Below, piece after piece: positions 2,504 to 58,212 of a stretch of DNA of 64,000 nt. The notes beneath the pieces were generated by a model. It did no database searches and had not been told where the DNA came from. It was given only the letters and a program-made list of their open reading frames with translations. The first letter of the stretch is position 1; each line of letters begins with the position of its first letter. The stretch lies in the IMG/VR virus record IMGVR_UViG_3300035703_000027, positions 57,190-121,189 of that record; one strand, 5' to 3'. This stretch comes from a virus. Position numbers and translations under genes: made by a program.

Positions 2504-2543
2504 CGGCAATTCAGGCGCCGGCGGGCGTGCGGGGCTCTAGAAT
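2504..2543 (+). promoter_or_regulatory. TGGCAA-class promoter variant CGGCAAT-N27-TAGAAT
   Basis: Near match to the repeated motif; 20 nt upstream of ATG 2563. Confidence 0.5.
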
Positions 2544-2562
2544 GGGAGCGGAGGAACGCCCC

Positions 2563-4848
2563 ATGCTGCTGGTCCCGGTTCGCTCATCCCTCTCGCTCTC
2601 GGCCTACCTGACGCTGCTCAAGGCCCTGATCCAGGTCAAGGCCCACACCCGCAAGGATGGGACGCGGGTCCAGGCGCACACGCGCAACATCCAGTCGAGG
2701 GCCGAACGCCGCGAGCTGGTCGAGGCCCTCGCCAAGAAGATGGGGAGCGGCGAGCACACGCGCCACGCCACCCTGGCGTCCGCGGTCGGCGCGGCGCGCT
2801 TCGCCTCGCGCGCCAACGGCAAGGCCGTGCACGTCTACGAGCACGCCGACGGCGGCTGGGTGGCGACGCACGACGAGACGCACACCGAGGGCCACGACGA
2901 GAAGATCGTGGCCCACAAGGGCAAGGCGCGGCTGCACCGGGCGGGCGAGGCCTCGCGCAGCCTGGCGCACCTCAAGGGTCCGATTGCCGAGCACGTCGAG
3001 AAGCCGTTTGTGCCCAAGGTCAAGCCGGCCCGCCCCAAGGCGGAAAAGAAGCCGGCCCCGACGCCCGTGGCCCCCGCCCCGGGCAAGGTGGACTTCGGCG
3101 CGGAGAAAACGGTCAAGGGGGAGACGCACGTCCCCGTGACGGTGGACGGGCAGATGACGCACGCCTTGACGAAGGACCGCCAGACGGGAGTCTGGGCGTT
3201 GCAGCGCGTGGACGAGCGCGACCACCAGGGGCCGGTCAAGATGACGCTGGTGCGGGAGGGGATGACCCGAAAGGAAGCCCAGCAGTACGCCGCCGCCCTC
3301 GCCGGGAACGATGCGGGCGAGCTGGCCCGCGTGCACCAGTACGATCGCGGCGTGCCGGTGTCGGAGATGCCGCAACTCAAGCAGATGCGGGATTTCTCCG
3401 CACTGCTTACTGGGCAGGATGGAGAGGGGCGCACCTGGTACACGCAGGGGTACTACCTCTCAACGGCCAATCAGGATGACTACCTCCTGCCAGGCGCCCA
3501 AGAGCAACCGATGGTGCGCAGTGCCGGTGTGGTGGATGAGTTCATCCCAGCCGCCACCACCCCGGTCCACCCGGTCGCCTTCAAGACCTCGCCGACCAAC
3601 GGCCGAACAGGCGCCGTCGTGTTCGACAACGGCGCCGTTGCAAGCGCCGAATACGTCCAGCGGCTGATGAAGCTGCACCCCGGGGCCTCCTGGCACTACG
3701 GCACCACCGCGACCTCGGTTGCCGGCGTCCCGATCAACGGCGTGGGCGACGGCAGCTTCCCGTTCGTGCTGAAGGACCGCCACGGCGCGAACGTCGCCAT
3801 GCTGATGCCGCTGAAAGCAGAGGCCGGCAAGGACGGCCTCAAGGAGCTGGCCGACCAGGTGGCCGCCGGCTACCGCCCGGCCAGCATAAAGCCCGAAAAG
3901 CCCGGATATGAGGGGCCGGAGGGTAAAGATATGACCGACGACAACGCAGCGGAGAGGAAGGCAGGCAGTGACCTCCGGGCCGCCGTGGCGGACAAGAACG
4001 GCGCGGTCGCGAAGGCACGCATCCGCCTGCACGACGACGTGGCGGACATCTACGCCGTCAAGCACCCCGACGGGCACATCACCGCCACCGTGCACTGGGT
4101 CGAAGGACAAAAGGCGCGCACTCAGCCCCACAACAGCTTCAACCTGGAGGGGTTCACGTCCAGCTTCAGCGGACCCAGGAAGTGGGACACCATCACGGCG
4201 TTCAAGCGCGACCTGGATCGCAAGTTCGGGGGGAAGGGCTACGTTCATCCGAACTGGCGCGACGCCCACTACGAAAGCGAGCTTGAGGTACGCGACTTCA
4301 GCGAGGAGCACGCCAGGGCCGTCGCGATCAAGGAAAAGCGGCGCAGGGCCGAAGCAGACGCCTACCGAGCAGGTGAGTCGGGTCGCAATCAAAGCCAGCA
4401 GTCCCGTCCCGTCAACTTGGCCGAGGAGTTAGCCAGGCAGGCAGCCGTGGCGACCGGCGATCGCGCGGACCTCAAGCACCCGGCCACGCGCAAGGCCGTG
4501 GTGGACGACCTTAAGAAGCTCGACGTGCACACCCTGGCGCCGCGGGCGCGGTGGAACAACATCGACCCCGACGTGACGGGCAAGCAGCTCACCGCGCGCG
4601 TCCAGCTCAAGCGGGCCGTGCCGCACCAGATGACGTACATCAACCCGAACACGGGCGAGAACCAGGGCCGTCTGGTCGAGCATGACGGCTACGATCTTCA
4701 GTGGCACCCCGATCGGGGCGTCTCGCTCAAGAACGACGATGGCAAGAAGGTCTGGTCCGACCCGGCGGCCACGAAGGACCCCGTGGCTGCCGTGAAGGCC
4801 GCGCTTCAGGCCGCCAACGCGCTGCCGGATATGACCTACAAGTCCTGA
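2563..4848 (+). CDS. Large multidomain protein, putative capsid-packaged (internal head) protein
   Basis: GGAGGA SD; N-terminal LLKA and VKAHTRKDGTRVQAHTR leader; no catalytic motif recognised. Confidence 0.6.
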   Translation: MLLVPVRSSLSLSAYLTLLKALIQVKAHTRKDGTRVQAHTRNIQSRAERRELVEALAKKMGSGEHTRHATLASAVGAARFASRANGKAVHVYEHADGGWVATHDETHTEGHDEKIVAHKGKARLHRAGEASRSLAHLKGPIAEHVEKPFVPKVKPARPKAEKKPAPTPVAPAPGKVDFGAEKTVKGETHVPVTVDGQMTHALTKDRQTGVWALQRVDERDHQGPVKMTLVREGMTRKEAQQYAAALAGNDAGELARVHQYDRGVPVSEMPQLKQMRDFSALLTGQDGEGRTWYTQGYYLSTANQDDYLLPGAQEQPMVRSAGVVDEFIPAATTPVHPVAFKTSPTNGRTGAVVFDNGAVASAEYVQRLMKLHPGASWHYGTTATSVAGVPINGVGDGSFPFVLKDRHGANVAMLMPLKAEAGKDGLKELADQVAAGYRPASIKPEKPGYEGPEGKDMTDDNAAERKAGSDLRAAVADKNGAVAKARIRLHDDVADIYAVKHPDGHITATVHWVEGQKARTQPHNSFNLEGFTSSFSGPRKWDTITAFKRDLDRKFGGKGYVHPNWRDAHYESELEVRDFSEEHARAVAIKEKRRRAEADAYRAGESGRNQSQQSRPVNLAEELARQAAVATGDRADLKHPATRKAVVDDLKKLDVHTLAPRARWNNIDPDVTGKQLTARVQLKRAVPHQMTYINPNTGENQGRLVEHDGYDLQWHPDRGVSLKNDDGKKVWSDPAATKDPVAAVKAALQAANALPDMTYKS

Positions 4849-4900
4849 GCAGCACGGCCGCGGCGCGCGCGCAGCATGCAAGCTGCACGCGCGCCGCGTG

Positions 4901-5566
4901 CTAGAAGCGCATCCCCACCCCGACAAAGGGGCCGTGCCCGGCGGGCGCCCAGCTCCCCTGGTAGCCCAGGGCGGCGAACACCTTGTCCCCCGCGGCGATC
5001 GCGAGGCCGGCCTGGTTGAGGTTGGCCTCCACGTCCAGGCTCACCTCCAGCGCGCCGGCCGCCTGGGGCAGCACGTGCCAGTCCGCGAGGGGCCGCAGCG
5101 GCGTGCCGCGCACGAGCTGCACGTCGAGCGCCACCACGCCCGGGAACGTGCCCGCGAGCACCCCGAGCCGGGCGTGGGCCTCGGGCGCCTGGGGCCCAGC
5201 CTGCATGGGCATGGCCTGCATCAGCGGGGCCGGGTGCACGGTGGTCCGGGTCTTGGTGACGATCTTGATCACCTCGCCCGCGGGGCCCGGGGGCAGCGTG
5301 GGCACCGCGGAGGGCTCGCCCGGCTGTGCTGGCATCCCGGGCGGGCGCCCCGGCACCGCGGGGGTCGCTGTCGCCACGTGGCCGCCGGCCGGCCGCACGA
5401 CCACCACCTCCGTCGTCGTCTGCGTCTCCACCCAGGGCGTCGCCACCGGCGTGGGCTTACCCACCGGCGCCACCGGGGTGGGCTTGTCGCACCCGACGTG
5501 CTGGCTGGCCCACGTCAGTACGCCCAGGACCACCGCGCCGGCCGCGCCGGCCTTCTTCTTCTCCAT
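4901..5566 (-). CDS. Exported Pro-rich protein with C-terminal beta-strands ending in Phe (outer-membrane or spanin-like candidate)
   Basis: GAGGAGGG SD; N-terminal hydrophobic segment then GC; ends FVGVGMRF. Confidence 0.5.
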   Translation of the reverse strand: MEKKKAGAAGAVVLGVLTWASQHVGCDKPTPVAPVGKPTPVATPWVETQTTTEVVVVRPAGGHVATATPAVPGRPPGMPAQPGEPSAVPTLPPGPAGEVIKIVTKTRTTVHPAPLMQAMPMQAGPQAPEAHARLGVLAGTFPGVVALDVQLVRGTPLRPLADWHVLPQAAGALEVSLDVEANLNQAGLAIAAGDKVFAALGYQGSWAPAGHGPFVGVGMRF

Positions 5567-5591
5567 GACGCCCTCCTCAACGAGACGCCCC

Positions 5592-5632
5592 CAGCATAGG
5601 CCCCGCCAGCCTCGCCGGGCGCCCGCGTTGCC
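5592..5632 (-). promoter_or_regulatory. TGGCAA-class promoter TGGCAAC-N28-TATGCT
   Basis: Exact motif spacing; 26 nt upstream of start 5566. Confidence 0.65.
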
Positions 5633-5670
5633 ACCGCGCAGCACGCACGCGGCACTCGCGCTGCATGGTG

Positions 5671-5708
5671 GCAGCGTGCGCGCAGCGCCAGGGGTGCGCG
5701 CACGCTGC
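5671..5708 (-). terminator. 14-bp perfect hairpin just downstream of thyX
   Basis: GCAGCGTGCGCGCA / TGCGCGCACGCTGC inverted repeat; no U tract. Confidence 0.4.
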
Positions 5709-5712
5709 GCGC

Positions 5713-6486: not shown

Positions 6487-6630
6487 AGTGTCTTGCCCTC
6501 CCCTGTATGCCGCCGCCAGGTGGTAAACCCGGCGCATCCCGTCATGCACGATGCCCCATCCCTCGTTTGCTGCGTCCGTGCCGCCCGCGCGCAGCGTGCA
6601 CGCGACGTGCGCACGGCGGCCGTGCCGCTT

Positions 6631-7416: not shown

Positions 7417-8213
7417 GTCGATGCCTCGTCAGGGGTGTGCCAGTAGGCGAACGCCACCGGCACGCACTCGCGCGCCTTGAACGCCAGGCACTCGTAACCC
7501 ACGTCGCTCCCGGGGTTCGGCAGGCCCGCGGCGCACGTGCGGCATGCCAGGTCGCCCTTCTTGCGCCCGGCCACCTTGCAGACCGGACAAGCCCCCGTGG
7601 CCTTGCCCGTGTGGGGGGCCGCGAAGGACACCCCGCAGACCGTGCACTGCGCCACATGCTGCGAGGGCGGGGCGGACGGCTTGCGCAGCACCTTGGGGAT
7701 GGCCCCGCGGGGCTCGGGCTGCTTCTCGGGTGCCTTGCCACGGGCGCGCGCGAGCCCTTCGGCCAGGCTGGTGGCCTTGAGGGCCGCGAGCAACTGCGCC
7801 CGCTCCGCCTCCGCAGCCTGCGCGCGGCGTTCAAGCTGCGCGCACGTCGCTTCCAGGCTGCTCGCGCGCAGCGCCACGTCCCGCATCGGGGGGCCGGCCT
7901 GCGCCTTCAGGGGCGCCAGCTCGGCCTCTGCTGCGTCCGCGCGGCGCTTGTGCTGCTCGCATGCTGCGTCCATGTCGCGCAGGCGCTGCTCCAGCAGCTC
8001 GACCTCGCGCTCCTTCAGGCCCAGCCGGGCCCGCAGCACGCCGGCGCCGTCCGGGGCCTCGGTCAGCGCGGCGAGGCGCCCCTGCGCCTCGATGGCGCGC
8101 ACCTCGGCCGCCGCCGCCATCCGCACCACGTCGCACAGCTCGCGCAGGTGCAGGTGGGCGCGCTCCGACCAGTAGACGATCGCGCGCGTCACCTCCGTGT
8201 GGGCGTCAGCCAT
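7413..8213 (-). CDS. Coiled-coil protein with C-terminal Cys-rich Zn finger
   Basis: Three CxxC pairs plus an extra Cys at the C-terminus; start overlaps the upstream stop. Confidence 0.55.
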   Translation of the reverse strand: MADAHTEVTRAIVYWSERAHLHLRELCDVVRMAAAAEVRAIEAQGRLAALTEAPDGAGVLRARLGLKEREVELLEQRLRDMDAACEQHKRRADAAEAELAPLKAQAGPPMRDVALRASSLEATCAQLERRAQAAEAERAQLLAALKATSLAEGLARARGKAPEKQPEPRGAIPKVLRKPSAPPSQHVAQCTVCGVSFAAPHTGKATGACPVCKVAGRKKGDLACRTCAAGLPNPGSDVGYECLAFKARECVPVAFAYWHTPDEAST

Positions 8214-9078
8214 CGACGGCGCCCCCCTTGATGACGAGGCCGTCGGCGCTGTCGTCTCCGCCAGCGCCGCCGTCGCACGTGAACGGGCCGCACGAATACT
8301 GCCCGTCGGCGGCATCGTCGAGCAGCGACAACTGCCAGCGGTGGCTGCCGTTCACCACCTCGTCGAGGGGCCGCAGCGCGCCTGTCATGTACATGGGATC
8401 GCGCCCGAGCTTGGCGCGCCGCTCGTTGATCATCCGCTCAAGCGCCACGGACTTCGCAAACAGGTCCGGGTGCGCATCATAGATGCGGCGCCACTCCTTG
8501 ACGGTGTGGAAAGGGCAGAAAAAGCACGACGACTTGGGCGGGACGGGCAGCCCGGCATCACGAATGACAGCCTTGCAGTCCTCCCGATTCAGCTCCAGGT
8601 CGATCAGCGGGTGCGCGTTGCGCAGGTGCGAAAGCTGGCTCGGCTTCATTCTCTGGATCTCGTCCACGCTGATGCCGATGCCGACCGTCCCGGGGTTGGT
8701 CTTTGTCGCCCCATGCGCCCGCATCCACTTCGAGACAACCCGGATCTTAAAGTCGGCCGTGCAGCTTCGATTGCCGGGTGCCCCCGACTGGAGCCGCATG
8801 GGGATGTCGATGCTGCGCTCGGTGCGGTGCAGCTTCCCCCACAGCGTCTCGCGGGTGCCGTCCCGCCGGGTCTTGTGCAGCTCGATGAGGTCAAGCCCGT
8901 GCTTGGCGGCGAAGGGCACCGCCACCTCCCGCAGGTAGACCATCGTCTCGGGATACTCGCTGTCATCCCCCACGTTGGCAAACAGGAAGGTCCGGTAGTC
9001 GATCCGCCCCTCGGCGGCGAGCACCAGGGCGGCCATGGACTGAACGCCACCACCGAAGCTGAACGCCTTGGGAATCAT
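8206..9078 (-). CDS. PAPS-reductase-family (adenine nucleotide alpha-hydrolase) protein with Fe-S-type Cys motif
   Basis: SFGGGVQS PP-loop, CTADFKI, GISVDE, KSSCFFCPFH. Confidence 0.8.
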   Translation of the reverse strand: MIPKAFSFGGGVQSMAALVLAAEGRIDYRTFLFANVGDDSEYPETMVYLREVAVPFAAKHGLDLIELHKTRRDGTRETLWGKLHRTERSIDIPMRLQSGAPGNRSCTADFKIRVVSKWMRAHGATKTNPGTVGIGISVDEIQRMKPSQLSHLRNAHPLIDLELNREDCKAVIRDAGLPVPPKSSCFFCPFHTVKEWRRIYDAHPDLFAKSVALERMINERRAKLGRDPMYMTGALRPLDEVVNGSHRWQLSLLDDAADGQYSCGPFTCDGGAGGDDSADGLVIKGGAVDG

Positions 9079-9141
9079 CGGAACCCTCCACACGGCAGGC
9101 GAGGCCCGCCCTCACAGTCGTACAGGGAAAAACACACCCCG

Positions 9142-9330
9142 TCACGCACTTTTGCCACCCTCTCCGGCCGCCTCCCGCAGCACCTCCAGCGCCCCGATCG
9201 CCCGGCTGGACACCTGCTCGGCGCGGGCGAGGTCCGCCCGCAATCCGTCCACCATCCCGAGCAGCGCCTCCAGGTGCGCCGGCGTGTAGGTCTTGCTGGC
9301 GATCGCCGCCCGGATGGCCTCAAGCTCCAC
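9142..9330 (-). CDS. Hypothetical protein
   Basis: 62 aa, GTG start overlapping the upstream stop. Confidence 0.5.
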   Translation of the reverse strand: MELEAIRAAIASKTYTPAHLEALLGMVDGLRADLARAEQVSSRAIGALEVLREAAGEGGKSA

Positions 9331-11607: not shown

Positions 11608-11624
11608 GATGAACCCTCCCAAAC

Positions 11625-11646
11625 ATCGTGATAATTGGCATTATCA
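11625..11646. promoter_or_regulatory. Palindrome TGATAA-TTGGCA-TTATCA (operator or dif-like site, copy 1)
   Basis: Perfect 7-bp arms; second copy at 13553-13573. Confidence 0.5.
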
Positions 11647-11694
11647 AGCCGGAAATCCGCAAAGCCTCGTAGGTAGACGCTTTTGGCCGTCCGC

Positions 11695-13079: not shown

Positions 13080-13098
13080 TTGGTATCCTTTCGGTGGG

Positions 13099-13530: not shown

Positions 13531-13552
13531 GTGGCACCTCCAAAAGGGTCGG

Positions 13553-13573
13553 GATAATCGGTCTTATCACGAT
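13553..13573. promoter_or_regulatory. Palindrome GATAA-TCGGTC-TTATC(ACGAT) (operator or dif-like site, copy 2)
   Basis: Shares the 10-mer ATCGTGATAA with the 11625 site in inverted orientation. Confidence 0.5.
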
Positions 13574-13669
13574 CGGATCCGCAAAACGTCGCAACGGCGC
13601 CATTTTCCGGCCCGTCGCACCCCCGGGGCGTCCCCGGAGGACAGTTTCGCGCCAGATAACCAGGGCCGC

Positions 13670-13934: not shown

Positions 13935-15047
13935 TTATGCGAGGTTGAGCGGCATGATCAGCGCGAGGGGGCCCGGGTTGTCCGGGTTCGTCACGAACAC
14001 CGGCCGCAGCGGCTCGGAAAACCCCAGCCGCGCCGCCGTCCCGGGCAGCGCGCGCAGGCTGTCGCGCAGGTACTGGCCGTTGAGCCGGATGCTGAAGGGC
14101 GCACCGCCCCAGTCGCAGTCCACCTGCTCCTGGCCGTCGCCCGAGGCCTCGCTGCCCACCTGCACGGTGAGCGCGTCCGCAGCCAGCGTCAGCGTCAGGA
14201 TGCGCGCGTCGAGCCCCGTGGTCACCACGAGCGCGCGCTCCACGCACGCCAGCAGCTCCGCCCGCAACACGTCCACCTCGATGGGCGACGAGGGCGGGAT
14301 GATGGCGGCCACGTTGGGGTAGCCGCCTGCCGCCAACCGGCTCGTCAGGTAGCGGTTGCCCACCGCAAAGCCGACCCGGTTGTCGTCCAGCGCCACGATG
14401 CGCACCTCCGCGGGCGCGCAGTCCTTGATGAGCCGGCCCACCTCCACCATCACGCGGCGTGCCACCACGATCTCGAACGCACCCGGCCCCATGCCCGTCG
14501 CGCGGTAGCGCGCGAGCCGCGAGCCGTCGCACGTGTAGATGGTCAGCTCGTCGTTCGCCAGCGTCAGGCTCGCCGCCGACTTGAAGTCCACGGCCGTCTC
14601 GTCTGCGCAGTAGAGCGTTGAGGCCAGCGCCTCTGCCAGCACGTCCGCCGGCAGCGTCACGCCCCCCTCCGCCGGCGCGTCGGGCACCGCGGGGTAGTCC
14701 TCGGGCGACAGCCCGCGCAGCGTGTACCGGCTGCGCGCGCACGTCAGCCGCGTGCCCGTGCCGTCGCTCTGGAGCGTCAGCTCGGCCTCCGGCGAGGCCG
14801 TGAGCTTGTCCACCAGCGCGCTGAAGGTGCTCCACGGCAGCGTGGCCGCGCCGGCCGCGAGCACCTGGCCGCTCAGCTCGGCGCGCAGCGTCAGGCCGAG
14901 GTCGCTCGCGCGGAACACGATGCGGCCGGACATGTCTGCTTCGAGCACCACGTGCTCCAGGATGGACATGATGCGCGTCCGCCCGGCCACCGGCTTCAGG
15001 TCGCGGACGGCCTCGCGCAAGGCGAGGCCCTTGAGGATGATGTGCAT
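13935..15047 (-). CDS. dnaN: DNA polymerase III beta sliding clamp
   Basis: About 370 aa with three-domain clamp motifs (SDLGLTL, YP..P, DGSRL, YPNVAAIIP, I.LNGQYL). Confidence 0.9.
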   Translation of the reverse strand: MHIILKGLALREAVRDLKPVAGRTRIMSILEHVVLEADMSGRIVFRASDLGLTLRAELSGQVLAAGAATLPWSTFSALVDKLTASPEAELTLQSDGTGTRLTCARSRYTLRGLSPEDYPAVPDAPAEGGVTLPADVLAEALASTLYCADETAVDFKSAASLTLANDELTIYTCDGSRLARYRATGMGPGAFEIVVARRVMVEVGRLIKDCAPAEVRIVALDDNRVGFAVGNRYLTSRLAAGGYPNVAAIIPPSSPIEVDVLRAELLACVERALVVTTGLDARILTLTLAADALTVQVGSEASGDGQEQVDCDWGGAPFSIRLNGQYLRDSLRALPGTAARLGFSEPLRPVFVTNPDNPGPLALIMPLNLA

Positions 15048-15079
15048 GGGACACCTCGGGTGAGTGAGGCGGGCCCGAC

Positions 15080-15116
15080 AAAAAAGCCGACCCCCGGCAA
15101 GCGCCAAGGGCCGGCT
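15080..15116 (-). terminator. Intrinsic terminator in the dnaN leader
   Basis: Stem AGCCGGCCC/GGGGGTCGGCT (one G-U pair) followed by a U run. Confidence 0.65.
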
Positions 15117-15677: not shown

Positions 15678-15908
15678 TCAGGCGAACAGCAGCGCGTCCG
15701 CGCAGCCGTGGCAGCGAGGCAGCCCGGCCAGGGGCTCGCCCGCGAGGCTCAGCGTGTCGATCAGGCGGCTGCGCGCCGTGCGACTCGCGCACGCCGGGCA
15801 CAGCGCCTGTACCAGGCCGTCCGGCCCGATGGCAGCATACACCACTGGCCTCCCGTCCACCACGGCCGCCATGCGGCCCCGCTCCATGTAGCGCATCAAC
15901 TCGAACAT
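15678..15908 (-). CDS. Small Zn-binding protein
   Basis: LCPAC and CHGC pairs; AAGGAGG SD. Confidence 0.55.
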   Translation of the reverse strand: MFELMRYMERGRMAAVVDGRPVVYAAIGPDGLVQALCPACASRTARSRLIDTLSLAGEPLAGLPRCHGCADALLFA

Positions 15909-16028
15909 GCTGCCTCCTTCCGGCCCACGGCCGCGCGCCATGGTGCCAGCCCGCCCGCGCCGCGCCGCCCGTTTTGCCACACGCCAAAACGCCCCGGCCG
16001 GAGCCGGGGCGCTGCGTTCCTGCGCGCG

Positions 16029-16959: not shown

Positions 16960-17019
16960 CGTGTGGGCCTTTCGTGTCGGGTGGGGTGTCTGCCCGCCTT
17001 CATCCGTGCCCCGGCGCGA

Positions 17020-17352
17020 TTATGCGCGGCGCGCTGCGCGATCGGACCGGATGAGCGCGAGCACGGCGGCGCGCTCGGCGTCGCTCAGCGGGCGCGAGGC
17101 GCCCCGGTCGTCCTCGGCCACGAACACGAGCGGGCCGGCGAGCCAGTCGCCCGCGGCGTGCCACATCATGTTGGCGCGCAGCCCGAGCACCTTGGCGGCC
17201 GGGTTGCCCCAGGCGAACACCTGCGGGTACTCCGGCAGCCACGGGCCGAACACGTCGAGGTCCCCGCCCACGAGCTGCTGAAGGTCGCCGTACTTGCGCG
17301 GCAGCGGGATGAGGTCGGGGTTTGCGCCGGGGCGCAGGTGAATCGCTTCCAT
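17020..17352 (-). CDS. DUF3846-like protein
   Basis: LQQLVGGDLD...GLRAN...LAGPLVFVAEDDRG...LS pattern. Confidence 0.65.
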   Translation of the reverse strand: MEAIHLRPGANPDLIPLPRKYGDLQQLVGGDLDVFGPWLPEYPQVFAWGNPAAKVLGLRANMMWHAAGDWLAGPLVFVAEDDRGASRPLSDAERAAVLALIRSDRAARRA

Positions 17353-17377
17353 CGGGCGGGCCTCTCGGGTCGGCACA

Positions 17378-17418
17378 ATTTTAAGCACGCGCGTGGCAAT
17401 TCCCCGATCCGGTTGCCA
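17378..17418 (-). promoter_or_regulatory. TGGCAA-class promoter TGGCAAC-N28-TAAAAT (leftward)
   Basis: Exact spacing; overlaps its rightward twin. Confidence 0.65.
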
Positions 17419-17434
17419 CACCCCGCCGGATACT
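17394..17434 (+). promoter_or_regulatory. TGGCAA-class promoter TGGCAAT-N28-GATACT (capsid operon)
   Basis: Exact spacing; predicted +1 coincides with GTG 17441. Confidence 0.6.
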
Positions 17435-17440
17435 CGGCAT

Positions 17441-32564: not shown

Positions 32565-32605
32565 TGGCAAAGCGAGGCGGCGGCGCGCCCCGGCCCCGCT
32601 AGACT
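32565..32605 (+). promoter_or_regulatory. TGGCAA-class promoter TGGCAAA-N28-TAGACT
   Basis: Exact spacing; followed by AGGAGG and ATG 32623. Confidence 0.7.
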
Positions 32606-44522: not shown

Positions 44523-44563
44523 TGGCAAAGGGCGCGCAGCGGCGCGCGGGCGCCCCTTATGCT
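44523..44563 (+). promoter_or_regulatory. TGGCAA-class promoter TGGCAAA-N28-TATGCT
   Basis: Exact spacing; ATG at 44583. Confidence 0.7.
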
Positions 44564-44582: not shown

Positions 44583-45116
44583 ATGCCAAACGGGCTCATC
44601 ACGGATCTGGGGAAGCGCGCCACGGCCTACATCTACGCGGAGGCGGTGACGCATGGGGCGTTCGGGCGGCCGGCCTGGCCGGACCTGTTCAGCCCGCCGG
44701 CGGAGCGCTACAGCGCCACGGCGCTGCTTGACGAGTTCGGGCGGGCGCCGGTGCGGGCGGTGCGCTACCTGATGGAGGACCCGGCCGGGACGGTGTACTA
44801 CCGGCAGCCCGACGGGGTGGTCGAGGGGCCTTATCGGTACGCGACGGTGGCCGAGGAAGCGGCCGGGGCGGCCCAGGTGCCGCCGGTGGCCCCCTCGGGC
44901 TTCGTGGAGTTCGAGTTCGCGATTCCCGCCAACGCCGCGATCGGCGAGGTGGTGGGTGAGATTGCCCTGGTGATGGGCGGGGCGACGAGCGCGCCCGAGT
45001 GGGCCACGCCCGCCCAGGTGACGGCGGCGGGCGTGCCCATCTACCTCATCACGGTGCCCGCCAAGGCCATCGAGGCCAACGAGGAGATCGTGCGGCGGGT
45101 CGCCATCCGCGTGTAG
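44583..45116 (+). CDS. Baseplate/fibre attachment protein
   Basis: Precedes the large DUF4815-like gene; .GEIAL.....A pattern. Confidence 0.55.
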   Translation: MPNGLITDLGKRATAYIYAEAVTHGAFGRPAWPDLFSPPAERYSATALLDEFGRAPVRAVRYLMEDPAGTVYYRQPDGVVEGPYRYATVAEEAAGAAQVPPVAPSGFVEFEFAIPANAAIGEVVGEIALVMGGATSAPEWATPAQVTAAGVPIYLITVPAKAIEANEEIVRRVAIRV

Positions 45117-45124: not shown

Positions 45125-48100
45125 ATGACCACCATCCAGCGAGACGACTTCGACCCCACCCGCAAGGAGCTTGCGATCGCCTGGTCCGGCGATCGCGACC
45201 TCGGCGACCACGAGCTGCGCCGGCTCGGCCGCATCGAGGACTTCAAGCTGTCGCGGCTCGGCGGGGCGGTGTTTCCCGAGGGCTACGTCGTCGAGTCCGG
45301 GGTGCCCGTGGTGGCGCCCGTCACCAACCTGGCCTACCCGAGCAACGGTTTCGCCGCCTGGGAGGACGTGGACGGCCTGGTGGTGACGGCGGGCTACGCG
45401 CCGGATCGCGCGGGCGTGGTGGGGGCTGCCACCCGGCTGGTGGGCGCGGCGGGCCAGGCCTCGCGCCTGGACCTCGACCTGTCGGTGCTGTCGGCGGGTG
45501 CCGGCGGGCCGGACCGGGCCATGTTCGTCTCCAACCGCATGGTGTTCTCGCTGGACATCCTGGGAGACGGCGTTGCCAGCATGCGGCTCGCCATCTGGGA
45601 CGGCGTGACGGAGCACACGGCCACGCACGTGCCGACGACGACGTGGGCGCGCTACGCGGTGGTGCGGGAGCGCCCGGCGTCCGAGGCGCTGCCGGACACG
45701 CTGGTGCTGCGCATCTACCCGGGCCTCGCGCCGCTGTCGGGCAGCATCGTGGTGGCGCATGCCCAGCTCGAAGCCCTGCCCGAGGGGCTGCTGCTGGTGC
45801 CCTCGGTCTACGTGCCGACCACCACGGCGCCCGTGACGGCGCCCGGCAACCGGGTGAGCATCGGCGCCAGCCTGGTGTATGCCGGTGGCCTGCCGCGGCC
45901 GGTGCCGGCGGCGACGCTGACGTTCGACCCGGCAAAGGTGACGGGCGTGGACACCCTCTACGCGGAGCTGGCCGAGCGCTATATCCTCGCCATGGTGGAC
46001 GCGGACCTCGACAACCCGGTCACGGGGCGCCCGGGCAACGACAGCGTGCGCGAAGAAACGCGCTGGGTCACGACGGACACGACGAACCCGGTGGTGCCGG
46101 CGGACGTGCTGGCGACGAACCCGCAGTACCGCAGCCGGCTGGCGGTGCCGGTCTACCAGTTCGACCGCGCCACCAACACGCTGTCCGAGGTCGCGAAGTA
46201 CAGCAAGGTGGCGGTGGACGACACCTTGGGCCTGCTGCCGGGCGACCGCATCACGCCGCGGAGCATCCCGGAAGATCGCCTCGACGTGAAGGCGACGGAG
46301 GGCCAGTCCGGCCTGCTCGCGGCGACGGCGCGCCGGATGCGCAACCTGTCCGGGGGCTTCGTGGTGCCGCAGGTGGGCACTACGCCGACCATCACGCAGA
46401 ACATGGGCGTGACCACCAAGGTGCAGCTCAAGGTGGACCCCCTCGACGGCTACACGCCGGACGGGCGGGCGCACTACCTCGACACGCCCCAGGTGGTGGA
46501 GGCGCCGCTCCAGGCCAGCACGGCGCTGCGCGAGGACGAGGGGCACACGTACTACGCGACCTACACGTCCTACACGCTGGCGAAGCAGCCCGTGGTGGCG
46601 ATCGAAGAGGTGGCCGGCTACTACGAGGTGACGCGGACGATCACGCGCGGGGCAGCGGCCCACGGCGCGGACGCGCTGCCGGACACGCCCGTGTTCGAGA
46701 TCGTGGAGGTCAAGCAGGGCGCGACGGTCTACACGCCGCCCTCGGCGGGCGTCGCGGGCGACTACATGCAGGTGGGGGACAGCATCTCGTGGGCGAGCGA
46801 GGGCGGCGGGCCGGCGGTCGGGGCGGTGTACCTGAACCCCGTGCGGGTCGCGACCACGGCGGCGTTGCCTGCCAACACGCGCTCCGGCAACGTGCTGACG
46901 GCGAGCGCGAACGGCTCGCTGCCGGCGGTGGACGGCGTGGCGCTGGCCGTGGGCGAGCGCGTGCTGGTGCGCAACGAGGTGAACGGGGCGCACAACGGCA
47001 TCTACACGGTCACGGCCCTCGGCGGGACGGGGGCGGCCTGGAGCCTGACGCGGGCGGCGGACGCCGACACGGGCGCGGAGCTGCCCCCGGGCATCGCGGT
47101 GAGCGCCACGGAAGGCACGGCGAATGGTGGGGCGTCGTTCGCGCTGGTGGCGAGCGACCCCGTGACGGTCAACACGACGGTGCTGGCGTGGGCCCGGGCA
47201 TCGCGGGAGCCAGCGGCGGGCTCGTCCTACCTGGTGCGCTACCGCTACCGGCGGGTGTGGAGCCCGTCGGAGTACACGTTCACCAGCACGGGCCTCACGT
47301 TCAACGCGGACGCCCCCAAGCCGGTGGAGCCGCTGCCCTTCAGCGTGTCCTACCGCTACGGGCAGGACCGCATCGACCTGGTGCTGATCGGCGGGGGCGG
47401 GCTGCGGCTGGAGCAGGGGGTGCCTTCGGACAACCCGACGCCCTACACGCTCGCAACGGACGAGCTGCCGCTGTGGGAGGTCCGTGTGGGCTACGCGCAG
47501 GCGGCCGTGACGTTCCGGCCGCGCTTCACGGTGGGCGTGCCGATGGCGGGCCTGATGGCGATGCAGGAGCAGATCGACCGGCTGGCGTACAACGTGGCGC
47601 AACTCTCGGCGAGCAGCAGCCTGCGGGATCGGCTCGGCACGCTCAAGGCGAGCATCACGGACCCCTTCCTCGACGCCCGGCAGATTGACCTGTACCACCC
47701 GGCGGCGGTGGCGGCGGCCTCGCTCGCGCGGGTGGCGGAGGGCCGCCTGAAGATGGCTCGGACGGGCTACCCCGCAGCAGGCACGCCGGCCATCCTGGCG
47801 ACGATCGCCGGGTCTGGCGCAGCGACGACCAGCATGGCGTTGCGGCTGCGCGGTTCCTGGGCGGGGCTGCCGTTCACGCTGGGGACGCCGGCGAGCCTCG
47901 GGAACCATCAATATTCGACCAGCGTCAGTGTCAACCCTTACAGCAACGCGGACCCCATCCCGGCGGTGCTGACCGTCTCCGCGGTGGTCTGGGGGAGTCC
48001 GCGCGCATCCTTCGACGCTGCGCTGACCATCACGGGCACAAAGTTCCAGCCTAACGAAGATGGCATCGTGATTGCAGCGGACGGCGTGACCATCGCGACG

Positions 48101-49321
48101 GTGACGGCCAACGCGCGCGGCGAGTTCTACACGACGGTGACGCGCACCTGGAACGCCAGCACCATCGTCACCGCGACGGGCCCGATCGGGTTTGCGTCGC
48201 AGCCCATCAACGGGTCCGTGCAGTGGGTGCGGACGGACCCCGCGGCACAGACGTTTGCGACGGAGGTGCCGATCGACATCGCGGGCGTGGATCTGTACTT
48301 CACGGCCAAGGACACCTCGGCGTCGCCCAAGGACGTGGTGGTGGGGCTGCGGCGGGTGCTGGTGGGCTTCCCGACCCAGGAGATGATCCCCGTGACGGTC
48401 AAGACGCTCAAGGCGAACGAGATCGCCGTGAACGGGACGGCCACCCGGGTGGAGTTCGACTTCCCCTACAGCATGGCGGCCGGGGAGGCCCTCGCGCTGG
48501 TGGTGGCCTCGGAGTCTCCGGCCTACCGGCTTCAGGTCGCGCAGCTCGGCAAGACGAACCTCGGCGTGGGCGGCGGCACCATCACGCGCAACGCGTTCGG
48601 GGGCGGCGTGCTGCTGCTGAGTTCGGACAACCGGACGTGGAGCGCGGTCCAGGACCAGGATCTCCGGTTCCAGATTCTCTCGGCGGACTACACGACGGCG
48701 ACGCGGCGCGAGCTGTACTTCGAGGTCAAGGCGTACCCGGACGGCATCACGAGCTTCGAGTTCGAGGCGCCGCACGTCGTCACGTCGGGCGCGACGCTCC
48801 AGTGGGAGTACAGCACGAACCCGACGGCCGCGGCGCCGACGTGGACGCCGTTCACGCCGGGCTTCCCGGGGCCGGTGAACGAGGTGCGGCTCGGGGCGGT
48901 GGCGACCAGCTTGCAGGTGCGCGCGTGGGCGCAGACGGCCGTGCCTGTGGCGGGGCGGTTCGTGGCGGGTGTCGCGATCGAGACGAGCAAGTGCTCGCTG
49001 CGGGCCTACCGGCCGGCGACGGCCTCGGTGTACGTCCAGGTCCAGACGCCTCTGCTGGCGAGCACGACGACGGCCAAGGCCTTCGGCAAGAGCTTGCTGC
49101 CGGCCGGCACGCAGGTGCAGGCCTACGCGAGCAACGACGACGGCACGACATGGGTGGAGGGCACGCTGGCGTCGAGCCGGGCGCTGGCGGACGGCCTGAC
49201 GGAGCAAGAGTGGTCCTTCACGTTCGCGAGCGCGGGCACGGCCTTCCGCGGGCGGCTGGATCTCGTCGGGACGGCGACGGCAAGCCCGGAGGTGGAGGAG
49301 ATCAGCTTCGTCGTGACGTGA
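45125..49321 (+). CDS. Large baseplate/receptor-binding protein, DUF4815-like
   Basis: N-terminus DDFDP..K......EL..L......G...F.EG; QTF...I..VDLYF; third copy of the fibre module at about 46840-47200. Confidence 0.7.
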   Translation: MTTIQRDDFDPTRKELAIAWSGDRDLGDHELRRLGRIEDFKLSRLGGAVFPEGYVVESGVPVVAPVTNLAYPSNGFAAWEDVDGLVVTAGYAPDRAGVVGAATRLVGAAGQASRLDLDLSVLSAGAGGPDRAMFVSNRMVFSLDILGDGVASMRLAIWDGVTEHTATHVPTTTWARYAVVRERPASEALPDTLVLRIYPGLAPLSGSIVVAHAQLEALPEGLLLVPSVYVPTTTAPVTAPGNRVSIGASLVYAGGLPRPVPAATLTFDPAKVTGVDTLYAELAERYILAMVDADLDNPVTGRPGNDSVREETRWVTTDTTNPVVPADVLATNPQYRSRLAVPVYQFDRATNTLSEVAKYSKVAVDDTLGLLPGDRITPRSIPEDRLDVKATEGQSGLLAATARRMRNLSGGFVVPQVGTTPTITQNMGVTTKVQLKVDPLDGYTPDGRAHYLDTPQVVEAPLQASTALREDEGHTYYATYTSYTLAKQPVVAIEEVAGYYEVTRTITRGAAAHGADALPDTPVFEIVEVKQGATVYTPPSAGVAGDYMQVGDSISWASEGGGPAVGAVYLNPVRVATTAALPANTRSGNVLTASANGSLPAVDGVALAVGERVLVRNEVNGAHNGIYTVTALGGTGAAWSLTRAADADTGAELPPGIAVSATEGTANGGASFALVASDPVTVNTTVLAWARASREPAAGSSYLVRYRYRRVWSPSEYTFTSTGLTFNADAPKPVEPLPFSVSYRYGQDRIDLVLIGGGGLRLEQGVPSDNPTPYTLATDELPLWEVRVGYAQAAVTFRPRFTVGVPMAGLMAMQEQIDRLAYNVAQLSASSSLRDRLGTLKASITDPFLDARQIDLYHPAAVAAASLARVAEGRLKMARTGYPAAGTPAILATIAGSGAATTSMALRLRGSWAGLPFTLGTPASLGNHQYSTSVSVNPYSNADPIPAVLTVSAVVWGSPRASFDAALTITGTKFQPNEDGIVIAADGVTIATVTANARGEFYTTVTRTWNASTIVTATGPIGFASQPINGSVQWVRTDPAAQTFATEVPIDIAGVDLYFTAKDTSASPKDVVVGLRRVLVGFPTQEMIPVTVKTLKANEIAVNGTATRVEFDFPYSMAAGEALALVVASESPAYRLQVAQLGKTNLGVGGGTITRNAFGGGVLLLSSDNRTWSAVQDQDLRFQILSADYTTATRRELYFEVKAYPDGITSFEFEAPHVVTSGATLQWEYSTNPTAAAPTWTPFTPGFPGPVNEVRLGAVATSLQVRAWAQTAVPVAGRFVAGVAIETSKCSLRAYRPATASVYVQVQTPLLASTTTAKAFGKSLLPAGTQVQAYASNDDGTTWVEGTLASSRALADGLTEQEWSFTFASAGTAFRGRLDLVGTATASPEVEEISFVVT

Positions 49322-49323
49322 CC

Positions 49324-49364
49324 TGGCAAAAGGCGCGCCGCACGGTCGGGGTCGGGTCTACGCT
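49324..49364 (+). promoter_or_regulatory. TGGCAA-class promoter TGGCAAA-N28-TACGCT (lysis cassette)
   Basis: Exact spacing; AAGGAGG SD and ATG 49397. Confidence 0.7.
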
Positions 49365-49396
49365 GGATCCGCACCGAGGCCAAGCAAGGAGGGCGC

Positions 49397-49804
49397 ATGC
49401 TGCCGGAGGGTACGGTCGTGGGGCTGATTCAGACGATCGGCGCGCAGGTGGGCGATTTCACGCCCTACTGGGGGCTGCTGGGGCTCAAGGGGCTCGACGT
49501 GGTGACGGGCCTGGCGCGGGCGGTGGCGCAGCGGAACATCGAGCCGCGCCGGCTGCTGGCGCTGCCGGCGTCCATCGGCGTCATCACGGTGGCGATCGGG
49601 CTGTGTTTGGGGCTCAAGGCCATCGACCCGGCGTTCGGGCCGGTGGTGGCGGCGGTGATGGTGGCGATGGGGACCGCGGAGGGCGCGAGCATCGCGCAGA
49701 ACGTGCACGACTGGTACGTGGCGCGCGGCGAGGTGCCGCCCGCGTGGTTGCAGGCGGCGACGGCCGTCATCAAGACGATGGAGGTCAAGAAGCCCGATGC
49801 CTGA
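49397..49804 (+). CDS. Holin (phage holin 4_1 / TcdE-like)
   Basis: Three transmembrane segments; LD..TG..RA and EG.SI..N motifs; upstream of the endolysin. Confidence 0.8.
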   Translation: MLPEGTVVGLIQTIGAQVGDFTPYWGLLGLKGLDVVTGLARAVAQRNIEPRRLLALPASIGVITVAIGLCLGLKAIDPAFGPVVAAVMVAMGTAEGASIAQNVHDWYVARGEVPPAWLQAATAVIKTMEVKKPDA

Positions 49805-50477: not shown

Positions 50478-50882
50478 ATGGGCGCCGGGGGCAGCGAGGG
50501 GTCGCCCTGCGCGCTGTGCGGGCGGGTGTTCGCGGCGCGTGCGCGCCACCAGCGGTTTTGCAGCACGCCGTGCCGGATGCGGGCGCGGTTCGTGGTGGGG
50601 ATCGCGCCGGCGCGGCCGGAGCGGGCGCCGGTGGCCTACGCGTGCGCGGGGTGCGGGACGATCTACCCGAGCAAGGCGCAGGTGGCGGCCTGTGTGGAGT
50701 GTGAGCGGCGGGAGCATGCGCTGGTGCGGGTGGTGCCCGGGCCGGACGCGTGCGTGCAGTGCCTGCACTGGGTGGTGTACCCGGGGGCGGACTACGGCTA
50801 CGCGTGCGCGCAGGGCCGGTTCTTGGCGTGCCGGCCGCACCGGCCGGGGGCGAAGCCTTACGCGCCGCGCGCTGGCAAATAG
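50478..50882 (+). CDS. Cys-rich Zn-finger protein
   Basis: CALC...FCS..CR, CAGC, CVEC, CVQC. Confidence 0.5.
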   Translation: MGAGGSEGSPCALCGRVFAARARHQRFCSTPCRMRARFVVGIAPARPERAPVAYACAGCGTIYPSKAQVAACVECERREHALVRVVPGPDACVQCLHWVVYPGADYGYACAQGRFLACRPHRPGAKPYAPRAGK

Positions 50883-50913
50883 GGGCGGGCGCCTGCGGGC
50901 GCGCGGCTATACT
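50873..50913 (+). promoter_or_regulatory. TGGCAA-class promoter TGGCAAA-N28-TATACT
   Basis: Exact spacing; GGGGAGG SD and ATG 50935. Confidence 0.7.
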
Positions 50914-50934
50914 CGGACCACAGGGGAGGTTCAC

Positions 50935-51674: not shown

Positions 51675-52117
51675 GCGCCGCCCGGCTGCGGTTCTTCGTG
51701 CCCGGGGTGCCCGTGAGCTTCCGGGGGGCCTACGGCGCGTCGCGGCGGCCAAGCCGGGCCGCGATCGCCTACCGGCAGGACGTGGTGGCCTGCTACCGCC
51801 TCGCGGCGGCACAGGATCAGCGCAACATCTTCTCGGCATGCGCCCCGCACCTGGGCCCGGTGGGTCTGCTGCTGGAGGTGGCCGGGAGCCGCGCGGACTG
51901 GGACAACGTGGGCAAGGAGATCAGCGATGCGCTGGCCGGCTGGGCCTATGGCGACGACAGCCAGGTCGTCAACGCCAAGGTAAAGTTTTGTGACAGAGTA
52001 TTGAATCAGGCCGGGGCTGTATGTCGGTCAAAACGCGGTTTCCCGGCCGGCGTGCATGTGACGCTCGTGTTATGGAATATTGCGCAACAAGACGACGAGA
52101 CAATCAAGAGCGGCTAA
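51671..52117 (+). CDS. rusA: RusA-like Holliday junction resolvase
   Basis: FFVPGVPVS, DWDNVGKEISDAL, AYGDDSQVV. Confidence 0.85.
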   Translation: MSAARLRFFVPGVPVSFRGAYGASRRPSRAAIAYRQDVVACYRLAAAQDQRNIFSACAPHLGPVGLLLEVAGSRADWDNVGKEISDALAGWAYGDDSQVVNAKVKFCDRVLNQAGAVCRSKRGFPAGVHVTLVLWNIAQQDDETIKSG

Positions 52118-52142
52118 TGGCGTGCGTTCCGGCGATTTCTGA

Positions 52143-52171
52143 ATTGTAAAGACGTGTGATTCTCGTCACAA
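52143..52171 (-). promoter_or_regulatory. Leftward sigma70-like promoter TTGTGA-N17-TACAAT
   Basis: Correct spacing and good -10; overlaps the CRP box. Confidence 0.5.
52155..52170. promoter_or_regulatory. CRP-family binding site TGTGA-N6-TCACA
   Basis: Perfect consensus core in an AT-rich intergenic region. Confidence 0.6.
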
Positions 52172-52273
52172 AAGTTAAACCGAGATTTGAACCAACCCCG
52201 GGTGCTTGTGTGGTAAAAAAGTACACGTGTCCAGCGGCCAACCACCCCGGACGTGAAGCAACTTGAAGCAATC

Positions 52274-52303
52274 TCGACAGATTTAGAACGCTTGTTCTAT
52301 AAC
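52274..52303 (+). promoter_or_regulatory. Promoter TCGACA-N18-TATAAC containing a Gram-positive-type LexA box TAGAAC-GCTT-GTTCTA (52284-52299)
   Basis: GAAC-N4-GTTC palindrome between -35 and -10, upstream of the replication genes. Confidence 0.65.
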
Positions 52304-52425
52304 TGATCGCGATCGATTTTCACCCCGACCCCGCAGTACCCCAACAGAAACGCGCCGGCCCCCGCTTTTCCCGAACGCAGGCCGACGCGCTTCCCAAGGC
52401 ACCCGCGCCCCGAGTAACCAGCTCG

Positions 52426-52725
52426 GTGGCGATGGGCACGCCTCATGGTAGCACAATGCAACCCCATGAGACACTCCATGAGCCGCTGCATGGTTATGCC
52501 GGCGTTTCGTCGTGTGCCGCTGACGCGTCTGTGATGGCGGCCACGGCGCCGGAGTTTTCGGCGCTGGTGGCGCAGGCCGAGGGCCTGCGGGCGTCGCTCG
52601 CGGCGCTGGAGGCGCGGCTGGTGGTCGCGGCTGCCACGCACGGCGTGAAGGGCATCCACCGGCTGGCGGAGGCCACCGGGGTGCCAGCCCGGGTGGTGCG
52701 GCGCGTGCTGCGGGAGGGGGCATGA
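52426..52725 (+). CDS. Small HTH protein (start uncertain, alternative 52534)
   Basis: IHRLAEATGVPARVVRRVL; coupled to the initiator gene. Confidence 0.55.
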   Translation: MAMGTPHGSTMQPHETLHEPLHGYAGVSSCAADASVMAATAPEFSALVAQAEGLRASLAALEARLVVAAATHGVKGIHRLAEATGVPARVVRRVLREGA

Positions 52726-54492: not shown

Positions 54493-54504
54493 AAGGAGCC
54501 AGGC

Positions 54505-55463: not shown

Positions 55464-55527
55464 GTATCCCCCCCCTATGCGCGCCGCGGCTTCACCACCC
55501 GCGGTCCCCTGCCCGAAGGAGAGCGCC

Positions 55528-55740
55528 ATGACCATGCACCTGCCGGCGTTGCCGGCCTACTACCCCGACCAGGCCTTCACGTGGGCCGCCCTCGTGCCGC
55601 AGCAGCGGCAAGGCCTCGAATCACGCTTCGAGGCGCTGGCCGACCAGCTCGCCCGCATCGAGGACGCCGTGCGGGCCATCCAGGAGAGCCAGGCCGTGCT
55701 GGCCCACGCCGTGATCGCCGCGCAAGGCGGTGCCGCATGA
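55528..55740 (+). CDS. Small coiled-coil protein
   Basis: AAGGAG SD. Confidence 0.5.
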   Translation: MTMHLPALPAYYPDQAFTWAALVPQQRQGLESRFEALADQLARIEDAVRAIQESQAVLAHAVIAAQGGAA

Positions 55741-56141: not shown

Positions 56142-56142
56142 C

Positions 56143-57327: not shown

Positions 57328-57776
57328 TGTTTGCCGACCCCGGCCTCGCGAGCGAGGCGAACACGCTGGCCCTCGCGGCCCGGCGCGAGGGGTTCGGCGT
57401 GATGACCGTCAGCCTGGAGCCCGAACCCTGGTCCGCGGAGCACGCGGCGGAGGCCGTCGAGGCCATCCTGGAGGCGGACGTGGTGATTGGGCTCGTGCCG
57501 AGCGTCGCCCCGCACATGGCCTGCGGGTTCCTCGCCCTGGCCCTCGGGATGCAGGCCGAGGTGGTGCTGTGGACCGTGGAGCCCGGCACCGTCACCGGGG
57601 TGCTCGCCATGCCCCAGGTGTGGCGCCTCGCCGGCCCGGTGGAGGCCGGCACGCAGCGCTCGTACCTGAGCCTGCTCGACGTGCTCGAACTCAAGACCGC
57701 CAAGCGCACGCCCAACGCGTCGGACTGGCGCCGCCTGGTGCGCAGCACCACCGCGCGCATCGCACAGGAGGCCTGA
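57315..57776 (+). CDS. Degenerate nucleoside-deoxyribosyltransferase-like / TIR-like protein
   Basis: ILEADVVIGL...ALALG....VVLW topology; catalytic Glu not evident. Confidence 0.4.
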   Translation: MELLMFADPGLASEANTLALAARREGFGVMTVSLEPEPWSAEHAAEAVEAILEADVVIGLVPSVAPHMACGFLALALGMQAEVVLWTVEPGTVTGVLAMPQVWRLAGPVEAGTQRSYLSLLDVLELKTAKRTPNASDWRRLVRSTTARIAQEA

Positions 57777-57779
57777 GCC

Positions 57780-58172
57780 ATGGAACCGGACACCTACGGA
57801 CTGTATGACGGCACGCCCCCGCACGCGCTGGGCTCGGAGACGAGCCGGGAGGCCGCGGAGGCCGTCAAGCCCCGGGCGGCCCTGCTGCGGGCCCGCTGCC
57901 TCGCCGTGGTCGAGGCCGCCGGGCTGGAGGGCGCGACGTGCGACGAGGTGGAGGCGGCCACGGGGCTGCTGCACCAGTCGGCGTCGGCCCGCGTGCGCGA
58001 GCTGGTCCAGCTCGGGGCCATCGTGCCCAACGGCGCGCGGCGCCAGACGCGCTCCGGGCGATCGGCGCAGGTGTACGTGGCGGCGGTGTGCGCCAAGCCG
58101 GCCCCGCCGGCCAACCACGTGCCCGGCCAGCTCGCGCTGCCGCTCGACCCCTGGAACGACGTGCCCGCCTAG
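57780..58172 (+). CDS. Winged-helix DNA-binding protein
   Basis: TS.EAA, G.TCDE, QSASARVRELV, RR.TRSGR.A.V. Confidence 0.7.
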   Translation: MEPDTYGLYDGTPPHALGSETSREAAEAVKPRAALLRARCLAVVEAAGLEGATCDEVEAATGLLHQSASARVRELVQLGAIVPNGARRQTRSGRSAQVYVAAVCAKPAPPANHVPGQLALPLDPWNDVPA

Positions 58173-58212
58173 TGGCAAGAAACCGTCCGACGCACCCCCG
58201 CACCCCTATCAT
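58173..58212 (+). promoter_or_regulatory. TGGCAA-class promoter variant TGGCAAG-N27-TATCAT
   Basis: One nt shorter spacer; AAGGAG SD and ATG 58238. Confidence 0.55.

Follow-up and report, generated by a model that had tools for sequence, protein, structure and literature searches.

A candidate phage promoter class pairing a distant TGGCAA box with a −10-like TAnnnT hexamer

Genome setting and the paired motif

The IMG/VR virus record IMGVR_UViG_3300035703_000027 holds the complete 121,189-bp genome of a phage with a guanine-cytosine (GC) content of 71%, and the stretch analyzed here, referred to as the window, is its 64,000-nucleotide right half (bases 57190–121189). Positions are those of the window unless marked "genome", and adding 57189 converts the former to the latter. 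The record is a closed circle: its final reading frame (63619–64000) continues without a stop into genome 1–233, and the neighbors across this junction are a small-terminase-like gene (63025–63594) and the large terminase gene (genome 532–2571). Approximately 135 genes were called by third-position GC. Their products include a holin, a tail sheath, a tail lysin of the M23 type and a fiber-like DUF4815 protein, and the capsid protein is distantly SPO1-like, with about 31% identity. Between the genes recurs a two-part motif, a TGGCAA box followed at a nearly fixed distance by a TAnnnT hexamer, which we call class B and whose distribution, architecture and possible readers are described below.

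A first-pass annotation, made from the nucleotide sequence, had listed nine main sites of this kind in the window, and all nine were recovered at their positions once 5632 on the minus strand was corrected to 5633. The refuting condition that it had named, a distance between box and hexamer no more constrained than in shuffled sequence, did not hold at either scale: the window contains six exact TGGCAA-N29-TAnnnT matches, whereas 100 dinucleotide shuffles averaged 0.03, and a genome-wide histogram of GGCAA...TAnnnT spacings between 20 and 45 peaks at N29 (14 pairs) and N28 (4 pairs), with two or fewer at every other distance. A weight-matrix scan returned 15 matches at N29, 7 at N28, none at N30–35 and 0–2 elsewhere save for 5 at N18, while shuffled genomes gave 0–3 matches for spacings 28–30 combined, and chance is excluded by these three comparisons. 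TGGCAA by itself is not enriched (28 copies, 22.7 expected), and the signal therefore lies in its fixed pairing with TAnnnT. When variants are included, the 121-kb genome carries about 20 class B sites.

The class B consensus consists of T-GGCAA-a, 29 (sometimes 28) GC-rich unconserved bases, and c-TA-c-G-a-T-G-G. Within the seed alignment the T, A and T of TAnnnT are invariant in 14 of 14 sites, and of the two positions that follow directly on the hexamer one is G at 12 and the other at 13 of these sites, forming a G-rich discriminator. Four variant sites have C or G at the first hexamer position or lack the final T; the first-base variants lie at genome 34912 and at window 15979 (minus strand) and 17394. 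The GC-rich spacers are unrelated, as had been described, with a mean pairwise identity of 0.397 (0.380 when shuffled); most spacer columns are poor in information, and the highest reach about 0.7–0.8 bit. The exception is a paralogous pair at genome 21799 and 23606, whose spacers are 78% identical. Spacer folding does not exceed that of shuffles (mean z 0.11) and no hairpins were found, which led us to reject a spacer hairpin or cruciform that would shorten the distance or act as a terminator; no Rfam family was matched. Nearly all class B sites fill intergenic gaps of 52–146 bp, the box often abutting the preceding stop codon. The hexamer lies 17–41 nt before the start codon, mostly 17–21 nt and with GGAGG in between, rather than the 6–35 nt first estimated, and the distance from box to ATG is 57–61 nt in 13 sites.

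This architecture departs from several known promoter geometries, in agreement with the initial description of a recurrent promoter-like class that has no −35 box and fits neither sigma-70 nor sigma-54. No −35 hexamer of the canonical sigma-70/sigmaA type stands 16–19 bp upstream of the −10 at class B sites, and a regular-expression scan for TGGCAA-related boxes at the normal −35 spacing of N15–20 found nothing promoter-like. Sigma-54 promoters pair GG at −24 with GC at −12, at a distance of 10 bp, and lack a −10 hexamer; TGGCAA does resemble a −24 box, but no conserved TGC follows 10–13 nt after its GG and TAnnnT is 29 nt away, and this reading was rejected. An extended −10 (TGn) is absent from the seed alignment, in which position −13 is C or T and positions −14 and −15 are mostly G or C. 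The alignment also has no conserved inverted partner of TGGCAA, and the only TGGCAA-N13-TTGCCA pair (17394/17418) consists of two overlapping divergent promoters. The box sits where it had been placed, one helical turn upstream of the usual −35 position. We predict from these patterns, with middling confidence, that the class B sites are promoters of a phage-specific class.

Class B sites and the genes they head

Beginning from the left of the window, the plus-strand site 2504–2543 (CGGCAA-N28-TAGAATGGG, score 22.1) precedes a gene for a 761-residue protein (2563–4848), its GGCAA lying 58 nt before the ATG, and the minus-strand site 5593–5633 (TGGCAA-N29-TATGCTGGG, score 25.7) precedes a gene for a 221-residue protein (4901–5566, minus strand). 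The minus-strand variant 15939–15979 (TGGCAA-N29-CACCATGG, hexamer CACCAT), an addition to the sites first listed, stands before the gene for a 76-residue product (15678–15908, minus strand). An overlapping, divergent pair is formed by 17378–17418 (minus strand, TGGCAA-N29-TAAAAT), before a DUF3846 gene (17020–17352, minus strand), and the variant 17394–17434 (plus strand, TGGCAA-N29-GATACT), which stands at the start of the block of head genes, the capsid gene (19049–20500) being the last of them. The remaining main sites are all on the plus strand. Site 32565–32605 (TGGCAA-N29-TAGACTGGA, score 26.2) precedes the gene 32623–33600 and subsequent tail or baseplate genes, 44523–44563 (TGGCAA-N29-TATGCTGGA, score 28.5) precedes 44583–45116 and the gene for the 1398-residue DUF4815 protein (45125–49321), and 49324–49364 (TGGCAA-N29-TACGCTGGA, score 28.3) precedes a holin-like gene (49397–49804) and the lysis block. 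Site 50873–50913 (TGGCAA-N29-TATACT, score 24.6) leads into the genes from 50935 onward, which encode RusA, a replication O-like initiator, a DnaC-like loader, SSB, an Xre helix-turn-helix protein and a methylase. Site 58173–58212 (TGGCAA-N28-TATCAT) lies before 58238–58678, with methylase genes, the small terminase gene and, across the junction, the large terminase gene following. Upstream of the window, ten further class B sites precede a portal-region gene and nine large genes, including that of a phage sigma factor. The regulon is not confined to late or structural genes such as those of the head, tail and lysis units, as class B also heads the replication/recombination block and the packaging genes.

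Sequence comparison with a 96%-identical strain (L031) showed no substitution across 17368–17515, which covers the divergent pair, against 322 mismatches in the 8.9-kb locus, and around the 15939–15979 site the strain differs at only two positions, one within the spacer and the other upstream of TGGCAA. Scans of IMG/VR, JGI metagenomes and genome collections yielded no related locus, and only this strain fragment was recovered. A motif scan of IMG/VR gave 27 single chance matches without protein similarity, and a literature search for TGGCAA in phage promoters returned nothing relevant.

Among the weaker candidates put forward by the first-pass annotation, 17928 and 23553 are intragenic and probably chance matches, while the minus-strand site 9117–9157 is intergenic, before the gene 8206–9078 (minus strand), but reads TGGCAA-N29-TACGAC, lacks the final T and has a borderline score of 14.5. 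Separately, CGTGCA/GCACGC words recur between genes around the early divergent region, at 1520–1600 (minus strand), 2475–2503, 5640–5700 and 6550–6630 and at genome 53719–53850; one copy forms GTGCAA-N29-TACGCT at about 1566 (minus strand), a possible degenerate class B site.

Four genes had been named as candidate helix-turn-helix activators of the class, and they are weak candidates. The gene at 55737 alone encodes a clear Xre-type helix-turn-helix, no DNA-binding domain was detected in the products of 59831 and 57780, and the candidate at 62989 (gene 63025–63594) resembles a small terminase instead, with a tandem helix-turn-helix, a PHROG terminase small subunit match and a position beside the large terminase. 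All four lie downstream of class B promoters.

Several other intergenic regions of the window carry repeats. The 163-bp gap at 59668–59830 combines a T-run with TGTAAAG/CTTTACA repeats, four or five in number and running in both directions, precedes a gene for a 321-residue protein of no assigned function, and resembles an iteron or operator array. A 449-bp non-coding gap (52117–52567) with repeated CATGAG/CATGGT words lies directly before the replication O-like gene and may be a replication origin. Among minus-strand genes, the intergenic regions 11608–11694 and 13531–13669 both carry TTTGCGGAT...TGATAA-N5-8-ATTATC, an operator-like GATAA/TTATC palindrome that is kept in the 96%-identical strain. 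The phage also encodes a DNA polymerase III beta sliding clamp (13935–15116, minus strand), whose gene is preceded by the strongest terminator-like hairpin of the region, a 14-bp stem with a T-run.

Canonical promoters, class A and the phage sigma factor

Genome-wide, the intergenic pattern TTGACA-N17/19-TAnnnT is present at just two sites, neither of them class B. The first, on the minus strand at 1345–1375 (TTGACA-N19-TACCATGGGG, hexamer TACCAT), precedes a gene (742–1311, minus strand) for a 189-residue lipoprotein with a signal peptide and the lipobox LAAC. It resembles a moron-type gene, possibly one for superinfection exclusion, and the protein (P0035) was rejected as an activator because of its signal peptide and lipobox. 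The second (TTGACA-N17-TACGCT, in the region genome 48174–48490) lies 316 nt upstream of the sigma factor gene (genome 48490–50334, 614 residues, outside the window). Going downstream toward this gene, the canonical promoter is followed by a 280-nt AT-richer untranslated stretch and then by a class B promoter; a leader of this length could have a regulatory role or code for a small RNA, and it has no Rfam match. The −10 flanks of the two canonical promoters (TACGCTGGAT and TACCATGGGG) resemble those of class B, falling in the top 9–15% of 192 TAnnnT sites under a matrix of class B flanks.

Another motif, class A, reads gCATAAA-N13-GGAT(A/G)GGG and is found in 11–12 copies in the genome, with 13–15 nt between its boxes, which is a normal sigma geometry. 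An example in the window is 17000–17024 (minus strand, gCATAA-N13-GGATGA), with a conserved leader hairpin further downstream; other window copies start at 293, 2122 and 13939 (all minus strand), and those elsewhere lie at genome 2580, 4340, 5507, 8590, 11350, 51939 (minus strand) and 55311 (minus strand). Class A precedes genes for an SNF2 helicase, a DUF6884 protein, a Mom-like protein and RecT as well as small genes without known function, and downstream of five copies lie a conserved GGGnGGGCAGACACCCnACCCC hairpin and an CGAAAGGA ribosome site. Together, this second promoter class, the sigma gene and the two canonical promoters, which lie outside or at the edge of the window, change the model that was drawn from the window.

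The phage sigma factor was characterized by profile and structure comparison. It has a weak region 3 match, and its best family matches, likewise weak, are to the RpoD C-terminal part, FliA/WhiG and SigB/F/G. A model of residues 190–559 searched with Foldseek against PDB returned sigma factors only. An insert of 86 residues interrupts region 4 between helices 4.1 and 4.2; most homologues keep it, although in P0006 it is much shorter. In a model with a predicted local distance difference test score (pLDDT) of 90, the two helices pack as a canonical domain 4, from which the insert departs as a helical excursion of its own. Superposition of 4.1 and 4.2 on solved structures of sigma region 4 gave Z 5.5–7.0 and a root-mean-square deviation of 2.0–3.3 Å; among these structures is E. 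coli sigmaE region 4 in complex with −35 DNA, all 69 residues of which were covered. The insert has a net charge of −9 (−9 to 0 in homologues), and the helix-turn-helix one of +3. By our reading of its sequence, region 2.3 appears to lack the aromatic residues of primary sigmas. Two relatives share 73% identity and about 30 are distant; in four distant homologues (P0007, P0009, P0010 and P0012) the sigma module occupies residues ~300–700 of proteins of 2,100–2,200 residues, so that sigma-like modules appear to reside inside giant proteins.

Two roles for the insert were discarded. It could have acted as a ruler separating 4.1 from the helix-turn-helix, which the compact, canonical form of the predicted domain 4 argues against, or as a DNA-reading domain in its own right, which was rejected because it is acidic and because a Foldseek search with the region-4-plus-insert model gave no match at E ≤ 0.001. 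Since domain 4 is compact and canonical, its helix-turn-helix should sit at −35 and not at −45. Class A, whose geometry suits the phage sigma better than that of class B does, is its likely target.

Readers of the distant box and known promoter systems

Class B must have a reader other than the unaided host polymerase. The explanation that we favor, and to which we give about even weight for and against, is a promoter resembling the T4 middle class, in which host sigma would act together with a phage adaptor or activator that is tethered to polymerase and reads TGGCAA near −45. The flanks of the class B −10 match those of the two canonical promoters, and the −10 part is therefore probably read by the host primary sigma, with region 2 taking the hexamer and region 1.2 the G-rich discriminator of TAnnnT-GG. 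Primary sigmas are known to recognize, through region 1.2, a GGGA-type element right behind the −10 box, and its effect in Thermus is 100–150-fold (PMC3526302). Transcription would start some 6–7 nt after the hexamer and give leaders of about 10–35 nt. A phage-encoded DNA-binding module would read the single asymmetric TGGCAA at about −47 to −42 and replace the −35 contact. Given the nearly invariant spacing and the lack of a dyad partner for the box, this module is probably monomeric and attached to polymerase, and not an unattached dimeric activator. The logic would be that of the MotA/AsiA "sigma appropriation", moved one helical turn further upstream.

The three promoter types can be arranged in a cascade, whose temporal order we infer. 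Host polymerase would fire the two canonical promoters, including the one that lies 316 nt upstream of the sigma gene; the phage sigma would then read class A (gCATAAA-N13-GGATAG), which heads the helicase, RecT and similar genes; and a product of the class A stage would turn on class B, and with it the replication, putative virion cargo, head, tail, lysis and packaging genes.

Several points weigh against this account. No box-binding protein was found among the roughly 92 of ~135 proteins scanned with Pfam or PHROGs, and the same scans contained no member of the MotA or AsiA families, with many small early proteins having no match at all. The argument for a host-type −10 box rests on two canonical promoters, and, as the host clues conflict, the preferences of the host sigma are assumed. 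Class B heads replication as well as late genes, which is awkward for the final stage of a cascade, and the sigma gene is itself immediately preceded by a class B promoter, an arrangement that usually indicates sigma autoregulation.

This last point, together with the location of the insert, keeps alive a second explanation, namely that the phage sigma reads class B directly, region 2 contacting TAnnnT and the insert or a displaced region 4 contacting TGGCAA near −45. We consider it possible yet rather unlikely. It would explain the 12 bp of extra spacer and would turn the class B promoter before the sigma gene, which carries both a canonical and a class B promoter, into one of positive autoregulation that the canonical promoter further upstream starts. 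The protein is a real sigma, as judged from its sigma-only Foldseek matches and from the region 3 and RpoD/FliA profiles, and the insert between 4.1 and 4.2 is both conserved in most homologues and confidently modeled (pLDDT 90). The recognition helix of region 4.2 is, in our reading, poor in base-reading residues, and in sigma region 4–DNA structures the loop bearing the insert presumably lies near the upstream edge of −35 DNA. However, the modeled helices 4.1 and 4.2 are packed as in any canonical, compact domain 4, so that the helix-turn-helix has not moved upstream, and the insert is strongly acidic. The class B −10 and discriminator resemble those of the two canonical promoters, whereas no profile detects the phage sigma's region 2 because of its divergence, and a sigma engaged at class B would leave class A, which has an ordinary alternative-sigma geometry, without a reader. 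The broader proposition, that either a sigma with an extra domain in region 4 reads boxes 29 bp apart, which would be a sigma–promoter geometry not known for any sigma-70 family member, or a new polymerase-tethered adaptor puts a DNA-reading module at −45, is likewise doubtful in our view.

A third explanation is that class B copies the promoters of a host regulon and that a host activator or alternative sigma, borrowed by the phage, reads TGGCAA. This was addressed with nine candidate host genomes of 1.8–7.1 Mb, four from the Thermus family and five Sericytochromatia, Thermoleophilia or Gaiellales assemblies. The exact class B pattern occurs 0–8 times in each, about equal to a reversed-pattern control, and one assembly has 8 matches against 4 in the control. 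The lack of excess is not a strong exclusion, since the true host is not identified, but the contrast with 12 exact copies in the 0.12 Mb of the phage bears out, as far as these genomes go, the earlier view that the motif is phage-specific. The host clues appear to point to different phyla: a class II tRNA-synthetase-like gene (L001:12462–13451) is 71–85% identical to genes of Sericytochromatia, Thermoleophilia and Gaiellales, and the phage ThyX (5713–6549) shares 62% identity with that of Thermus and, in a match that is partial, 80% with a Thermaceae assembly. No tRNAs were found in the phage genome, and a 20-kb BLAST search against 68 Thermus-family genomes gave similarity of the M23-peptidase type only and no spacer-like matches. 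We regard a borrowed host regulon as improbable. Finally, a non-promoter signal (RNA processing, translation, an operator or a duplicated cassette) would suit the very constant 57–61 nt from box to ATG and the clearly paralogous sites at genome 21799 and 23606, but is a highly improbable explanation because conservation is confined to the two boxes, with unrelated spacers that fold like shuffled sequence and match no Rfam family, because the conserved bases (T, A and T) fall exactly where a −10 hexamer has them, and because the sites precede unrelated operons on both strands, the overlapping divergent pair included.

Keeping the host −10 and exchanging the −35 for a private box is how phages retarget host polymerase, and to our knowledge only a handful of such mechanisms have been worked out, T4 MotA/AsiA and Thermus phage gp39 being two of them. 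In the present phage the private box is placed one whole helical turn farther upstream than in either case, and its distance is rigidly fixed. The same phage has an unusual sigma and a second class of ordinary geometry, yielding a testable three-tier model with about 20, 12 and 2 promoters, and TGGCAA at −45 offers a defined bait for a new polymerase-directing protein.

Class II activator promoters (CRP, FNR, NtcA) use dyads of 14–22 bp that are bound by dimers and centered at −41.5. Class B shares with them a −10 box, the absence of a −35 and an upstream protein site overlapping the −40s, but has a single asymmetric box of 6–7 bp and no second half-site. In the sigma cascade of Bacillus phage SPO1, gp28 and then gp33/34 direct transcription from promoters with normal 17–18-bp spacers and non-host −10 boxes. 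The present phage resembles SPO1 in its capsid protein, in having a phage sigma gene behind a host-type promoter, and in its several promoter classes; it differs in that class B combines a host-type −10 box with a 29-bp spacer.

The late promoters of Thermus phage Lalka27a have a TAGGGT −10, a conserved C at −25 and no −35, and were attributed to a phage factor that retargets the host polymerase (bioRxiv 10.64898/2026.04.20.719267). Lalka27a and phiYS40 are phages of high-GC hosts whose late promoters have TAnnnT, no −35 and a private extra determinant, as class B does, but that determinant is a hexamer at −47 to −42 here and one base at −25 there. Transcripts of the Thermus phages are leaderless, whereas those predicted here have Shine-Dalgarno-containing leaders and the phage has its own sigma; relatedness is limited to the distant SPO1-type capsid protein. 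The closest parallel in logic is the T4 middle promoter, which combines a stringent sigma-70 −10 box with a monomer-bound box at a fixed 12 ± 1 bp (PMC2988021). What MotA/AsiA-dependent promoters share with class B is a host-type −10 without a −35, together with an asymmetric, phage-specific box whose distance hardly varies, but the T4 box is 12 ± 1 bp away and centered at −30, while the class B box is 29 bp away, near −44.5, and heads a regulon that includes virion and lysis genes.

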